Notes under the pieces: generated by a model
Seen by the model: only the letters and a program-made list of their open reading frames with translations
What the model was told of the DNA's origin: nothing
Database searches by the model: none
Source of the DNA: Candidatus Latescibacterota bacterium
GTDB taxonomy: Bacteria; Latescibacterota; UBA2968; GCA-2709665
Length of the DNA: 64,000 nucleotides
Direction: 5' to 3'
Assembly (NCBI GenBank): GCA_965219455.1
Contig: OZ244744.1
Location: 2,400,001 to 2,464,000 of the forward strand
Position numbers and translations under genes: made by a program
Shown here: one piece after another, positions 2,533 through 36,314 of the stretch
Numbering within the stretch: position 1 is the stretch's first letter
Layout of the letters: the number at the start of each line of letters is the position of its first letter

Positions 2533-2565
2533 CCTGTCTGCGTGCAGGGCTTCCGCACAGGCAGG
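2533..2565. repeat. CCTGTCTGC...CAGGCAGG micro-palindrome (33 bp)
   Basis: cctgtctgcgtgcagggcttccgcacaggcagg; family members at 2735-2754, 6414-6482, 15816-15846, 26997-27029, 29240-29266, 36003-36032. Confidence 0.75.
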
Positions 2566-2711: not shown

Positions 2712-2872
2712 TCGAAAACAGTAACCGGGATACGCCTGTCTGCCAACAGGCAGGCGCTGCGATCGATCGGGCAGCCTCCATTGAGACGGCAATCGACCGG
2801 GATCGTTCGTTATATATAATGTATAGCAACGGCAGACGATCCGGTTCCAACGTGGCAGGACGTTCGGAGCGC

Positions 2873-4551: not shown

Positions 4552-7500
4552 ATGGCTATTTTATCCATTTTTCGCAAGCCGGTTGCATGGCCGCGTTTCC
4601 TTGCGTGCGCGGCCCTCGGTCTTTGTCTACTGCTGGCCGCCTCCACGCCCGTTCCGGGCCAGGAAGTCGAGGAGGAACGCGAAAGCTTCGAACTCGCGCA
4701 ACGCCTTTTCGATAACCGGGATTATGCCAATGCGGCGCAGGAGTTCCGACGCTTCAGCGCCACGTATCCCACAAGCGCGCGGCTTCCCTCGGCGCTCTAC
4801 CAACTGGGAGAAGCGCATTTCCTGGGCGAACATTACAAAAAAGCGGTCGACGCGTACGAGGACTTTCTCGTGCGCTATTCCGGACGCCTCGAAGCGGCGC
4901 CGGCCATGCGGCGCAAGGCCGAAGCCCTCGAGCGCCTCTCCGAGTATGCAAAGGCCGGAGCGGCCTTCCGGGAAGCACACGACCGGTTCGCAGGGGGGAA
5001 ACACGCCGCCCGGAACCTCCTCGCGGCGGGAATCAACTTTCACAAAGGAAGGGACCTGGACGCCGCCGGGAAGGCGTTCGGCGCGCTCGTGGCGAAATAC
5101 CCGCAATCCGACCTCGCTACCGAAGCCAACTACAAATGGGGGCTCGTACTGCTCGACGCCGGACGCGCCGAAGAGGCACTGGACCGGTTCAAATCGATAT
5201 CCGAACCCGGGGGAGATTCCAAGCGGACGCCGGACGCCCTGCTCGAGATCGGCAAGATCGCCCTTGGCATGATAAACGTGAAGGAAGCGGAAGCAGTCTT
5301 CGGCAGGCTGCGCAGGGCCTATCCGCGCAGTTCCGCGGCCGGCGACTCGTACCTGGAACAGGCCGCCTGGTTCGAAGGCAGGGGGAACCGGGCCAGGGCG
5401 GCCGAAGTCTACGGACTCGCCCGGGGAAGCCTTCCGAAAGGCGAGGATCGCCAGAGGGCGGTTCTGGGCCTGGGCAATGCCTATCTCGAACTCGGACGCG
5501 AACAGGAGGCGCTCGCGCTTTTCACCGAATTCATCAACGTAGTTGCCTCCAGCCCCTACCTGGATCGCGCATGGCTGGGCCTGGGGCGCGCCCACGCCGG
5601 GCTGAAACATTACCGCGAAGCCCAGAACGCGTTCCGCCGACTCCGGGAACTCTACCCCGAAACGGAGGCCGGCATTCAGGCGCACGCGGAGATGGGCGAC
5701 GCCTGGCGGGCCGCCGGCGCCCCGCGCCGGGCGCTGAGGGCCTACCGGTCCTATATCGAACGGACAGAGACGCCCGGGGCCGTGGCGGCGCAGTTGCGCA
5801 TCGCGCGCACGTACGAACAGGATCTGGGCTGGCACGACCTTGCCCTGCAGGTCTACCGGAGTCTGGTCGATACGGCCCCGGCCGCCGTTGCCGGCGAAGC
5901 GCAGTTCGGAATCGCCCGTGTTATGGATCAAACCGGGCGGCCGGACCTGGCCATCCGCGAATACCGTTCCTACCTGCAGAGATTCCATAAACGCGCAGTC
6001 GAGGCCGAAAACCGGATCCGGTACCTGCGGGAGTTCGGACCCGAAACTCCCGGGGTCCCGCCGGCCGAGCTGGCCGCGCTGCTTTCGAGTTTCCCGGCAA
6101 TCGCCGCCGATCCGCAGGCCCAGTTCGTACTCGGAAAGTTCCTCCACGGCCGCCGGTACTACGAAGAGGCCACCGAGAAACTGACGTTGGCGCTGTCCGT
6201 GGATCCGCTGCCGCCGTTCGCGCCCGAGGCCGCCTATCTTCTGGGCGAGAGCGCCCTGAAAATGGCGCGGAAAGCGGAACTGGAAGGCCGGCCGGAAAAG
6301 GCATCCTCCTGGCGGCAGAAAGGCCAGGCGGCGCTTCGGGACGTTGAAACCGGGCATCCCGAAAGCGGTTTCCGGGACGACGCCGCCCTTTTGCGGATCG
6401 AAACGGAAACCCGCCTGCCTGCCGCGCCGGACACCTGTCTGCGTGCGGGCGACAGCACGCACAGGCAGGCGGCGCAGGCAGCCGAGGCGGCCACCGATAG
6501 CGCGCTCGCGCGGATGCGGCTCGCGGCATACGAAGAATTCAAAGAGACCTACCCCAACTCCAACCGGCTGGACCACGCACTTCTGGGCATGGCCGACGCG
6601 ATGTACACGCTAAGCCGGTTTGAACCCGCGCGGATCGACACCGCCGTGGCGACCTACCGCGGCATCCGGAAAGCGTATCCGCAAAGCCCGGCCGCGGAAC
6701 GGGCAACCTACGGCATCGGGTTGTGCCAGGCCATGAAGAAAGACTACGTTGCGGCCGAGGAAACGCTGCGCGATTTCCTCTTCGAATTTCCACGGAGCGA
6801 CCTGGAGAGCCACGCCAGGTACCAACTCGGCCGCATCCTCCTGGAGCGCGGGTTCGCGCGGAGCGCGGCGGACGACCTGGCCGAGCTTCTCGCGGGGCCC
6901 GCGTCGCCCGAACTGGCGCGCGCCGCGCGCGCGCTGCTGGCCGAAAGCTCCTTCCGTGCAGGGGACTACCGTCGCGCCATCGATATTGACACCGGACTGC
7001 TGTCCCTCGGGCCAGACGGCTCCGTTCTACGCCGTCTGGCGCGGTCCTACCAGGCAAACGGGCAGGCAGTGGAAGCCATCGAGACCTGCGAGACCCTGCT
7101 GAGCGCTTTTCCCAACGCCGCGAATGCCGATAGCTTCGCATACGACAGGGCGCGGCTCCTGGCGGACCTCGATCGGCAGTCCGAAGCCGTCGCGGCCTTC
7201 AAGGCGTTCCCCAAACAGTATCCCGAAAGCCCGCTCAATGCGGATGCGGGCAAGACCCTCGCCGCCCTCCTGTTTGAAGCCGAGGACTACCAGAACGCGC
7301 TCGCCGCTCTTGTAAGTATCCCGGCGGACGCGAGGGACGCGTCGGTTGCCGGGCGCGAAGTCCTCAGCCTGTTCCGTCTCAAACGCATAAAGGAGGCGAA
7401 AAAAGCCGCGGGCCGATTCAAGAAAACCTTTCCGAACCGCCGTGACTGGCTGGCCCGGTTCAAGAACGAGGAGGGAAGGTATTTTCTTACCGCCGGCAAT

Positions 7501-8310
7501 TTCAAAAAAGCCCGTCAGGTTTTCGAGGGCGTCATCAGAAATCATCCCGGCGGCGAAGCCGCGGCTGAAGCCGCCTACTATCGCGCCCGGACCCTGAAAA
7601 GAGAAGGTGAGAAGGAAGCGTACCGGGAAGCCCTCGCCGGCTTGGTGAAAACCCGTTCAGGCAGTCGCCACTGGTCAGCAGCAGCCCTCGAATTGGCCGA
7701 TATACTTTACGACGACGGGGACTTTGAGAGGGCGTCCAGAGCCTATCGGAACGTGCTTGAAGCCGGCCCGTCGCCCGATGAAACGCCGAAGGTTCTGTCC
7801 AGGCTGATGAAGGTTCACAGACGCCTGAAGCTGTTCGATACGGCGATCGCCTATGCCAACCGGCTCATCCGCGAGTTTCCCCGGCACCGCCTCGCGGCGG
7901 ACGTCCCCATCGACATTGGAACGATGCTTCACGACAACAAGAATTACCGGGCCGCGATCGCACACCTGACGCCCCTGCTGAAAACGGCCGAGGAAAACGA
8001 TTGGTCAGGCATCCAGCACACGATTGCGGAGAGCCACTTCAAACTCGGAGACTTCGAAAGCGCGATCCGGGAATATCTGAAACTCCAGTACCAATTTCAA
8101 GGCAACCCGCGTTGGCGGGCCAACGCGCACTACGGTCTCGCCAACTGCTACGAAGCCCAGGGGAACTTTCAGGAGGCGATCCGGGAACTCGAGGCCATCC
8201 AGCGCCGGGAAGGGGCCGCCAGCGACCTGGGCCTCCAGGCCGGAAAACGCATCGAGATGCTGCAGGCCCTGATGCAACGCAGCCGGGAACCCGCGCCACC
8301 CGCGCAATAA
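4552..8310 (+). CDS. Large secreted tetratricopeptide-repeat protein (BamD/YbgF-like repeats)
   Basis: 1252 aa; N-terminal signal peptide; many TPR units ending YP.S/FP.S followed by A.Y.LG. Confidence 0.85.
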   Translation: MAILSIFRKPVAWPRFLACAALGLCLLLAASTPVPGQEVEEERESFELAQRLFDNRDYANAAQEFRRFSATYPTSARLPSALYQLGEAHFLGEHYKKAVDAYEDFLVRYSGRLEAAPAMRRKAEALERLSEYAKAGAAFREAHDRFAGGKHAARNLLAAGINFHKGRDLDAAGKAFGALVAKYPQSDLATEANYKWGLVLLDAGRAEEALDRFKSISEPGGDSKRTPDALLEIGKIALGMINVKEAEAVFGRLRRAYPRSSAAGDSYLEQAAWFEGRGNRARAAEVYGLARGSLPKGEDRQRAVLGLGNAYLELGREQEALALFTEFINVVASSPYLDRAWLGLGRAHAGLKHYREAQNAFRRLRELYPETEAGIQAHAEMGDAWRAAGAPRRALRAYRSYIERTETPGAVAAQLRIARTYEQDLGWHDLALQVYRSLVDTAPAAVAGEAQFGIARVMDQTGRPDLAIREYRSYLQRFHKRAVEAENRIRYLREFGPETPGVPPAELAALLSSFPAIAADPQAQFVLGKFLHGRRYYEEATEKLTLALSVDPLPPFAPEAAYLLGESALKMARKAELEGRPEKASSWRQKGQAALRDVETGHPESGFRDDAALLRIETETRLPAAPDTCLRAGDSTHRQAAQAAEAATDSALARMRLAAYEEFKETYPNSNRLDHALLGMADAMYTLSRFEPARIDTAVATYRGIRKAYPQSPAAERATYGIGLCQAMKKDYVAAEETLRDFLFEFPRSDLESHARYQLGRILLERGFARSAADDLAELLAGPASPELARAARALLAESSFRAGDYRRAIDIDTGLLSLGPDGSVLRRLARSYQANGQAVEAIETCETLLSAFPNAANADSFAYDRARLLADLDRQSEAVAAFKAFPKQYPESPLNADAGKTLAALLFEAEDYQNALAALVSIPADARDASVAGREVLSLFRLKRIKEAKKAAGRFKKTFPNRRDWLARFKNEEGRYFLTAGNFKKARQVFEGVIRNHPGGEAAAEAAYYRARTLKREGEKEAYREALAGLVKTRSGSRHWSAAALELADILYDDGDFERASRAYRNVLEAGPSPDETPKVLSRLMKVHRRLKLFDTAIAYANRLIREFPRHRLAADVPIDIGTMLHDNKNYRAAIAHLTPLLKTAEENDWSGIQHTIAESHFKLGDFESAIREYLKLQYQFQGNPRWRANAHYGLANCYEAQGNFQEAIRELEAIQRREGAASDLGLQAGKRIEMLQALMQRSREPAPPAQ

Positions 8311-26965: not shown

Positions 26966-27069
26966 GGACAATGAGAAGGGCAGACAGGAATGTCTTGCTG
27001 CCTGCGCAGCGTACTGCGCTGCAGGCAGGCCCCACCTTAACACACGCCTGAAAACGAAGTCGACCGCAC

Positions 27070-29221: not shown

Positions 29222-29419
29222 AAAAGCCCATCCGGGCTGCCTGCCTGTGCGTTGCACGCAGACAGGCGACCGGCTCTCGTGGCCGAATTACTGCGTTGCG
29301 CTCCCTCCTCGAATCCCCCGATTCGACTCGGTCGCGCGCCTTGTCTTCGGGCACGCCGACAGAGCGACTTTATCAACGACCCGCTGACGAACCGGCGTCT
29401 CTGACCACAAGGAGCATGC

Positions 29420-35438: not shown

Positions 35439-36314
35439 CGGTCAGCTATCAGCCGTTAGCCGTCAGCTTGATTCAAAAACCCAATGCGTTGACGTCAGCG
35501 TTATTGTGTGGACCGCCGCGACGGGCGCAGACCTCTCCCCCCAAGCCCAAGTCCCTCACCCCCCAACCCCCTCTCCCACAGGGAGAGGGGGAAAAACCGG
35601 GAAAACCGGCCCCACACGGAGACACGAAGACACAAGAAGACACAAAGGGAAAGGCGGAGAGAGGGGGAGGGTTAGCGATATGGGCCTGGCGATGCCAATC
35701 AGAGATGTGCACGCCACAACGTGGGCGACCGGCCGGTCGCCCCTACAAATGCAACGACGCCGCGGGACCTCTCCCCCGGCCCCCTCTCCTGCAGGAGAGG
35801 GGGAGAAGGCGACATGGCCTGGCGATGTCAATCGGCCAATTCCGCGGCTTCATAGATCATCCTGTCGCCCGCACGGTGGTGGAGCGGGGGGTTTTGCCGC
35901 GTAATTCCGTCCAGCACCGCAGTACTGGTACACCTGAAGGGTTTGCAGGGCACCCAATTTCCGTTCCTGCCCCTGAGGCAATTCGCGGAAAAACCGGCTC
36001 CGCCTGCCTGTGCGTGTCCGCACGCAGACAGGTGCCAAACGGCGCCGTTCTTTTTGGTCCTTTTTCGCGAGAAAGAAAAAGGACGAAGAGAAAAAAAAGT
36101 GAAGGGAGCGGAAGAGCCTGTGTCCGCCCGGAACGCAGTTCCAAAAAAACGAAAGAGGTAAGAAGGGAGAAGTGAGAGGACCACACCCCACCACACTGGA
36201 AATACGGCACAACGAGGGCTGGAAGCCGTCGGTCCCGGGGACCTCTACCACCATCCCCGCGGCGTCCGAGCAGGGCCAAGTGCACGCAACGGCCGATGAG
36301 TTCCTTTGCGCCGG

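Follow-up and report, generated by a model that had tools for sequence, protein, structure and literature searches.

Repetitive extragenic palindromes (REPs) are palindromes of 20-40 bp, and Di Nocera et al. (2013) reported that, in several species, REPs lie wholly within open reading frames (ORFs), where inserts that are single, paired, or clustered encode as many as 82 residues, as well as within other palindromes; GTAG and CGTC super-families were distinguished (PMC3733652). Rickettsia palindromic elements (RPEs), described by Ogata et al. (2000), are the classic example of in-frame insertions that add a surface peptide to proteins and leave the genes functional (PMC3733652, PMC3184786). 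Here we analyze a stretch of 64,000 nt (positions 2,400,001 to 2,464,000 of contig OZ244744.1, assembly GCA_965219455.1; hereafter, the window) from a Candidatus Latescibacterota bacterium, in which a gene for a tetratricopeptide repeat (TPR) protein contains, at window positions 6414-6482, a 33-nt hairpin that is split by a second hairpin of 36 nt. We conclude that these 69 nt are probably two members of a REP-like family of mobile elements, i.e., imperfect hairpins of 19-36 nt, which were inserted one after the other and have been tolerated.

A number of other systems are relevant to such a locus. Elements of the IS200/IS605 type use a "peel and paste" mechanism, i.e., seamless single-strand transposition in which hairpin ends are recognized as single-stranded DNA and no target duplication is made, and miniature inverted-repeat transposable elements (MITEs) consist of 15-30-nt terminal inverted repeats around a non-coding core of 70-300 nt and are associated with a target-site duplication. 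The small dispersed repeats (SDRs) SDR4-6 of Nostocaceae, reportedly described by Elhai et al. in 2008, are said to be mobile hairpins of approximately 21-27 nt that nest in each other and enter specific small targets. By description, these SDRs are the closest to the present family in size, reportedly share its nesting, and differ from it in sequence and lineage. No SDRs are reported to have been found outside Nostocaceae (PMC5861425).

Nested hairpins in a TPR gene

The ORF that holds the insert (Table 1) encodes 1252 aa and matches many TPR Pfam families (TPR_6, TPR_16, and TPR_14, as well as YfiO and others). Within it, the insert reads CCTGCCTGCCGCGCCGGACA, followed by CCTGTCTGCGTGCGGGCGACAGCACGCACAGGCAGG and then CGGCGCAGGCAGC; the two outer pieces, of 20 and 13 nt, base-pair with each other to make up the 33-nt imperfect hairpin, which is split after base 20, and the 36 nt between them form an imperfect hairpin of their own that contains one G-T pair and has a bulge of 2 nt. 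An inverted-repeat search placed the outer arms at 6412-6428 and 6468-6484 (17 nt, 82% complementary), and a 91-nt stretch across the site folds as a stem within a stem at -55.1 kcal/mol (z = -3.29; 2 of 200 shuffles were equally stable). Rfam gave no match at E<=1 across 6250-6650. The 69 nt are read in frame as RLPAAPDTCLRAGDSTHRQAAQA (23 aa); the TPR-protein peptide at the insert is LPAAPDTCLRAGDSTHRQAAQA, and the translation around it is ...ETETRLPAAPDTCLRAGDSTHRQAAQAAEA.... The sequence and coordinates of the nested hairpins, and their in-frame position in the TPR coding sequence, are thus as claimed in an earlier sequence-only reading of the window (hereafter, the original prediction), as is the expectation that 33 + 36 = 69 nt would add a peptide without a frame break, given that the ORF of 1252 aa stays open.

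In an AlphaFold2 model of residues 496-751 of the TPR protein, computed with 20 aligned orthologs (mean predicted local distance difference test [pLDDT] score of 88.6), the insert falls between the predicted helices 113-125 and 141-172 (numbering of the modeled segment). Residues 126-140 are modeled as coil, with pLDDT below 50 at residues 132-138, and the last nine inserted residues lengthen the helix that follows. The insert hence sits in what is predicted to be a disordered inter-helix loop, a tolerated position.

Empty, single, and nested alleles at orthologous sites

To compare orthologous sites, a 400-aa query around the insert was searched in 40 relatives, which provided 19 orthologous loci for alignment with the window's gene (G000 denotes the genome that holds the window and G001-G014 are genomes of the same genus; G003, G005, and G011, which gave weak matches only, are outside the alignment). 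The site is empty (...ETETR-x-AEDPDS...) in 15 of the 19 orthologs, i.e., in seven same-genus genomes (G002, G004, G006, G007, G008, G010, and G014) and in all eight genomes of other genera. The predicted gap of 23 aa was therefore found, and alleles with an empty site exist; their absence, or an ortholog segment of equal length that lacked the palindrome, had been named in advance as evidence against insertion. An intermediate allele of about 12 aa, which had also been anticipated, is represented by G013, where the site consists of CCTGCCTGCCGCGCCGGACACGGCGCAGGCAGG, the undivided 33-mer alone (11 aa), and by G012, where the 33-mer carries an additional GCG in its loop (12 aa). The sites of G009 and G001 retain the left arm, with different sequence inside and a decayed right arm.

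Removal of the inner 36-mer from the window's sequence recovers the 33-mer of G013 except for the final base, and the window's outer arms equal those at the same site in G013 and G012 at 20/20 and 12/13 nt. The 20 nt that comprise the left arm and loop occur exactly once each in G000, G012, and G013, always at this locus, and the 33-mers at the TPR site are therefore orthologous; with one mismatch allowed, two further copies are found elsewhere in G001. The locus is thus an unusually complete allelic series, which comprises an empty site, one element, and an element within an element.

With regard to the inner element, its loop variant GCGTGCGGGCGACAGCACGC (allowing at most one mismatch) is found at three places in 41 genomes, namely at the TPR site, in G001, and in G009. 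The entire 36-mer is present in letter-identical form at G001:C14:261108, within a heparinase II/III-like ORF, and at G009:C1:2837473, in an intergenic slot, and at all three places it occupies the same position within a related 33-mer (GGACA^CGGCG in the window, and GGGCG^CGGCA and GGGCA^CGGCA at the other two). The G001 composite, also of 69 nt, is in frame in the heparinase II/III-like gene and adds HLSAAPGACLRAGDSTHRQAAQA (23 aa), and in the 12 other same-genus genomes searched the heparinase-like homologs match as two pieces with approximately 22-23 query residues missing. In four runs, metagenome contigs accumulate on 6434-6469 and cease to match at 6432-6434 and 6469-6471, which independently confirms the ends of the 36-mer. 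In 18 of the 19 copies of the 36-mer the loop is TGAG, which in the TPR gene would be read as an in-frame TGA stop; GGCG takes its place in the TPR copy, and this loop is common to the TPR copy, the G001 gene copy, and the intergenic G009 copy.

Because the outer arms equal those of G013 and G012, with a 20-mer that is unique to this locus there, and because the inner element is letter-identical to copies at other loci, two successive insertions are favored, as the original prediction had proposed. The 69-nt composite may also move as one unit, which leads to a different history, i.e., that the composite entered the TPR gene whole and that G013 and G012 later lost the 36-mer by seamless excision. 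This single-event history would be consistent with the existence of composites with an identical inner part in the G001 gene and in the G009 slot, and with a gene tree that already needs one loss or parallel gains (see below). We nevertheless regard it as unlikely, since the outer arms in the window agree with the arms of G013 and G012 and not with those of the G001 and G009 composites, which differ from them at 3/20 and 2/13 positions, and since G013 and G012 are not grouped on the tree, so that two independent precise excisions would be needed.

The repeat family in the genome

Members of the family have the ends CCTGYCTG...CAGRCAGG, arranged as a hairpin in whose foot a G-T wobble is fixed and one strand has a 2-nt bulge. 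The regular expression CCTG[CT]CTG.{0,60}CAG[GA]CAGG gave 95 matches in the 5.84-Mb genome, as compared to 10 and 6 for controls with the same ends in direct and everted arrangement, respectively, and an IUPAC pattern gave 82 matches vs. 0 for its reversed control. Once matches that contain another match are dropped, 83 non-overlapping copies of 19-38 nt remain, which together account for approximately 0.05% of the genome; lengths of 33 (26 copies), 36 (16), 28 (15), 27 (11), and 30 nt (7) are the most common, and the length is divisible by three in 60 of the 83. Palindromes that arise by chance, or slippage or a local inverted duplication in a GC-rich gene, would also be able to produce hairpins, and both the GC content of the TPR gene and the shuffles that fold as well as the insert are in their favor; however, (near-)identical copies are present in other genomes and at dozens of unrelated loci, and the site is empty in orthologs, which leaves this explanation a negligible probability, and it was ruled out.

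Based on gene calls from a crude caller of our own (4265 genes, 83% coding), 69 of 92 strict matches (75%) are intergenic, vs. 15% expected from 20,000 random placements, and 5 of the 92 are within genes. Sixteen further matches called as inside genes are mostly within approximately 180 nt of an over-long predicted start, and two of these, located in the window, are intergenic on inspection. The claim that the family is otherwise intergenic therefore stands for the window, where the other strict members lie outside genes by the crude calls and on inspection, and does not stand genome-wide, as three more copies are found in coding sequence. The base before the element is G in 53/83 copies and the base after it is C in 69/83. 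GTAG or CTAC was found within 8 nt of an end in 0/83 copies and CGTC or GACG near an end in 11/83, i.e., there is no regular tag, and most copies are single rather than REPIN doublets (inverted pairs at fixed spacing), with only 7 of 82 neighbor gaps below 200 nt. Intergenic copies are not enriched between convergent genes, where 7/71 copies lie in 14% of the intergenic length, and they favor no other position, including the 3' side of genes; a role as terminator or 3' untranslated region was rejected on the basis of the convergent-gene result.

Exact insertion in other repeats and other genes

Pairs of empty and filled sites are also present within the genome itself. Many family members occupy fixed slots in larger repeats, chiefly in a separate MITE family. 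Most of the approximately 130 copies of this MITE family read ATCCG^CCGATTC or ATCCCG^TCTCG without interruption, and a minority carry a hairpin exactly at the marked point; at least four hairpin subtypes use the same slot, and one copy has both slots filled. These pairs show that insertion is exact and without target duplication, and no target-site duplication was seen at any filled/empty pair (the TPR site, the MITE slots, and a WD40-like gene). The MITE copies end in GTGTCCCGTCCCAGAAATATGTCACCATTC and GGCAATCTATTTCCGGGACAGAACAC and have a modular interior of approximately 60 to >200 nt; the window's copy is at 2494-2640, between a tRNA gene and an L25/Ctc-like gene. Self-nesting is likewise not confined to the TPR gene, as four elements in this genome lie within another family member, and the same nesting is found in other phyla (loci L062, L077, L083, and L107).

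Among other genes, one encoding an HsdS subunit contains an element read as SLPADAAAQA (10 aa) in the central linker, which is absent in 8 of 10 homologs and present in 2, and one encoding a WD40/protease-like protein contains an element read as LSVRGTQAG after the signal peptide, which all three homologs lack; removal of the 27 nt from the latter gene restores the FC/AV junction of the same three homologs. A 30-mer (G000:3279580) lies in an HsdR-like remnant of 155 aa, for which the frame says little; at this locus (L031, G000:C1:3278000-3281500), the type I restriction R subunit is reduced to fragments (ORFs of 155 and 120 aa). All four insertions in intact genes (TPR outer element, HsdS, WD40-like, and the G001 gene) are read in the register xC CTG YCT ... 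CAG GCA GG. The view that a small mobile element writes peptide into proteins is thus supported by in-frame copies in intact genes, and not as the family's normal habit, since the 5 in-gene copies among 92 are rare survivors.

The common register, the Ala/Pro/Gly-rich peptides that it yields, the maintenance of the TPR ORF, and the fact that the one 36-mer copy without an in-frame TGA is in a gene could also be taken to mean that the inserted peptide is adaptive, i.e., that a new surface loop was selected for protein function. We consider this very unlikely, as the same stop-free variant is also intergenic in G009, 15 of 19 orthologs do without the loop, loop content is different in every filled genome, the model predicts disorder, and purifying selection against stops and cysteines alone predicts a common register.

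Distribution across genomes and phyla

Copy numbers in the 41 genomes range from 0 to 204 (e.g., 0 in G008, 1 in G014, 82 in G000, and 204 each in G009 and G015), with 0 for the reversed control in all of them, and the dominant hairpin subtype differs between genomes. A cross-phylum scan of one genome per species with the pattern CCTGTCTGCGTGC-N(2-14)-GCACAGGCAGG gave at least 120 loci, of which 80 were read. Nine of these are labeled Latescibacterota, and the rest bear the labels of many phyla, including Planctomycetota (with a Candidatus Brocadia genome that is complete), Verrucomicrobiota, Thermodesulfobacteriota, Nitrospirota, Firmicutes, Zetaproteobacteria, Campylobacterota, and Bipolaricaulota. 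The cross-phylum copies have unrelated flanks, and several are nested alike. Predicted viral contigs contributed 35 matching stretches, with several family members on some contigs. The family is therefore not lineage-specific, with hairpins of 26-36 nt in metagenome-assembled genomes (MAGs) of many phylum labels as well as in predicted viral contigs.

Core strings of the family (12-13 nt) gave no relevant match in the searchable literature, which leaves subscription journals outside the search; judged by title and abstract, the matching papers concern unrelated primers or genes. As MAGs of many phyla and viral contigs carry the family, this suggests a widespread repeat that is ignored by annotation pipelines; such repeats can inflate ORFs, split alignments, and produce apparent indels in orthologs. 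A bolder interpretation is that the family represents a pan-bacterial, horizontally spreading, self-nesting micro-transposon of 19-36 nt that seamlessly enters hairpin loops, including its own, is maintained against decay (cf. the 32/33 identity discussed below), and occasionally writes Ala/Pro/Gly-rich loops of 9-23 residues into proteins, with stop-free lineages, e.g., the GGCG variant of the 36-mer, persisting in genes. We put this forward tentatively, as a possibility that is at present more doubtful than probable; if true, these elements would rank with the smallest known mobile DNAs that nest in themselves, and their spread across phyla and into viral contigs would mean that they are moved either by very widely shared machinery (RAYT-like HUH enzymes that act on non-cognate hairpins in trans) or by a core function of the host.

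Proposed mechanism and candidate mobilizing enzyme

According to the reading that we prefer, the 33-mer entered the TPR gene between the G and C of ...ACCCG^CG..., in the inter-helix loop, in an ancestor within the genus, and the 36-mer then entered the 3' edge of the loop of the 33-mer in the window's lineage, both insertions being base-exact and without a target-site duplication. Both have survived because their lengths are multiples of three, no stop occurs in the frames read, and the peptide falls in a loop predicted to be disordered; the element would be tolerated and of no benefit to the protein. Movement may take place as single-stranded hairpin DNA, in trans, by an HUH/Y1 enzyme of the type of the REP-associated tyrosine transposases (RAYTs), the chemistry of which would allow for seamless insertion and excision, and hairpin loops, including those of the family itself, may be preferred targets.

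Candidate enzymes are present, as two ORFs score above the NCBIfam cut-off for NF047646, the RAYT family (97.7 and 89.2 bits vs. 80). Close orthologs (>=79% identity) of one of these RAYTs were found in exactly six of the 41 genomes (G000, G001, G009, G011, G013, and G016), which hold 63-204 family copies each; G016, which belongs to another genus, has an ortholog that is 82% identical, and no close ortholog was seen in its congener G020, which holds 2 copies. A RAYT-like match at E<=1e-8 was present in 12 of 13 genomes with at least 15 copies vs. 5 of 28 genomes with fewer, a link that is overstated by kinship.

The loci of both RAYTs in G000, which lie outside the window, have hairpins of their own. 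At locus L021 (G000:C1:1911363-1914593), the NF047646 domain (89.2 bits; RAYT ORF at 1912809-1913363) is in frame inside an ORF that resembles DUF1156 anti-phage-associated methylases and has small GC hairpins, GCGGGCGGGACGCCCGC, on either side; open frames of 1203-1441 aa in G009, G011, and G016 show this arrangement as well. Locus L022 (G000:C1:1921448-1924669) contains a free-standing RAYT gene (ORF at 1922867-1923436) with alternating copies of its own hairpin, CGAGGGCAGGATGCCCTCG, on the flanks, and three CGAGGGCAGGATGCCCTCG copies are read in frame in the predicted RAYT N-terminus (RGQDALD motifs); this architecture recurs in G009, G013, and G016.

Several observations weigh against parts of this reading. 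With regard to the enzyme, the flanks of the two RAYT ORFs hold CGAGGGCAGGATGCCCTCG or GCGGGCGGGACGCCCGC hairpins and not the CCTGYCTG family; in 4/4 genomes examined, arrays of the different hairpin CGAGGGCAGGATGCCCTCG border the RAYT that has close orthologs, and one CCTGYCTG-family member adjoins this RAYT in G009 only. Three genomes are copy-rich without a close RAYT ortholog (G007, G015, and G024, with 132, 204, and 80 copies, respectively), G024 has no RAYT-like match at E<=1e-8 at all, and tblastn of 35 viral-contig loci (<=3 kb) found no RAYT homolog within 1.5 kb of the copies. The orientation of asymmetric copies is not biased by replichore (23 vs. 20 and 7 vs. 11), which argues against a strictly lagging-strand, IS608-like mechanism, as such a mechanism would give a bias. 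(The cumulative GC skew of G000 is lowest near 3.52 Mb and highest at 0; provided that the skew marks the origin and terminus, this implies unequal replichores of approximately 3.5 and 2.3 Mb.) With regard to movement, no contig of four public runs over 6000-6900 skips either element, although contigs drop rare variants and this result therefore does not bear on current mobility; a single contig of 542 nt, which stems from a different study, spans all 69 nt and has 3 differences. An RNA-library run, the library of which may contain DNA, gave contigs on 6132-6330 and 6569-6777 and none across the insert.

The history at the TPR site is also more complex than a simple gain. On a maximum-likelihood protein tree, from which the insert columns had been removed, G013 branches first, then G000, then the group of G012, G009, and G001, before the clade of the seven genomes with an empty site (support 100/100), and all outgroups are empty at the site. 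The filled genomes are thus paraphyletic, and one loss or parallel gains must be added. One ancestral gain with one later frame-preserving loss is the simplest reading; that a locus-specific variant was gained in parallel is less likely.

Finally, the 33-mer is 32/33 identical between G000 and either G013 or G012, whereas the whole TPR gene is 86% and 81% identical, respectively, and its third codon positions are 76% and 68% identical, which suggests that some constraint or renewal acts on the hairpin and points to conservation beyond pure neutral decay. The 33-mer of the window, set against loci L002 and L003, is thus better conserved than the surrounding coding sequence. An explanation that would accommodate this conservation across the deepest split in the genus (vs. 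a synonymous-site difference of 24-32%) is that the hairpins are kept as DNA or RNA structures, e.g., as a protein binding site or mRNA stabilizer, roles that have been proposed for REPs, with in-gene copies as by-products, which would be compatible with mobility; the conserved foot with its fixed wobble and bulge, and the persistence of the same sequences across phyla, are also consistent with such a role. By contrast, the absence of an enrichment between convergent genes or of another positional preference, and the lack of an Rfam match, do not support it, a range of 0-204 copies among congeners is hard to square with a host function, and the sites in protein loops and other repeats look indiscriminate. 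A structural role as the main explanation thus appears rather unlikely to us.

Comparison with described systems

Likenesses between this family and REP/RAYT systems include GC-rich imperfect palindromes of 20-40 nt with G-T pairs, tens to hundreds of copies, a mostly intergenic location, several subfamilies per genome, some copies that are translated in ORFs and some that lie within palindromes, and RAYT genes in the carrier genomes (PMC3733652, PMC3116915). The family differs from these systems in its end tags, in the absence of REPIN doublets and of a 3'-side preference (see above), in that hairpins of another family flank the genome's RAYT, where a REPtron would have the cognate REPs, and in that the whole 27-30-nt sequence is common to many phyla. 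RPEs share with the present elements that palindromic repeats are in frame in genes that stay functional (PMC3733652, PMC3184786). RPE-1 is approximately 100-150 nt long as compared to 19-36 nt here, and RPEs are set apart here by length and host; the statement in the original prediction that RPEs are several times longer holds for RPE-1 and does not hold for other RPEs. In addition, RPEs were described from Rickettsia, where in-gene copies are common, whereas in-gene copies are few here and the relatives are labeled as Latescibacterota or Gemmatimonadota MAGs. The bacterial interspersed mosaic elements (BIMEs) of E. coli combine hairpin units and short conserved motifs in mosaics, which resembles the fixed MITE slots and other repeated contexts found here (PMC2884548), whereas the units of the present family are also found singly, within genes, and nested in one another. 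Like IS200/IS605 elements, the family inserts seamlessly and does not duplicate the target; it differs from them in that it lacks a transposase gene of its own and shows neither a strong target word (G^C only) nor a bias by replichore. Unlike a MITE, the element is a single hairpin of 19-36 nt without a duplication, and the true MITE family that hosts some of the copies is a separate one.

Intragenic insertion of REPs of 20-40 bp has already been published (Di Nocera et al. 2013, PMC3733652), and the value of the present locus is in the allelic series and the breadth of the family. The locus provides a clean natural series for a mobile unit of 27-36 nt, with insertion points that are base-exact in four genes, and this series makes it possible to test hairpin movement, seamless excision, and the amount of new protein loop sequence supplied.

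Other features of the window

The family members of the window and the host gene are listed in Table 1.

Table 1. Coordinates of the host gene, the nested hairpins, and further family members in the window.
Position	Strand	Feature	Basis or remark
4552..8310	+	Host gene, TPR-repeat protein with N-terminal YfiO/BamD-like match	ORF, Pfam, full-length orthologs of 1200-1264 aa
6414..6433	+	Outer 33-nt hairpin, left arm and loop (20 nt)	Identical 20-mer at orthologous site of G012 and G013
6434..6469	+	Inner 36-nt hairpin, at 3' edge of outer loop; stop-free loop variant GGCG replacing TGAG	
6470..6482	+	Outer 33-nt hairpin, right arm (13 nt)	Last base C; G in G013 and G012
2533..2565	+	Family 33-mer in standard slot of MITE copy, intergenic, tRNA gene to L25/Ctc-like gene	
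2735..2754	+	Minimal family member, 20 nt, intergenic	
29240..29266	-	Family 27-mer, intergenic by crude calls	Same 27-mer in viral contigs and other phyla
36003..36032	-	Family 30-mer, intergenic by crude calls	

A further small hairpin, GCAGACAGGAATGTCTGC (16 + 22 copies), is found at 26975-27030 of the window and at approximately 38-40 places in the genome; it has the word CAGACAGG in common with the CCTGYCTG family and often adjoins family members. G000 is unusually rich in small repeats, and its top 14-mers include GGGGCAACCACAAGGGTTGCCCC-like and GGCCGGGGGGAGAGG-like words with approximately 30-60 copies.

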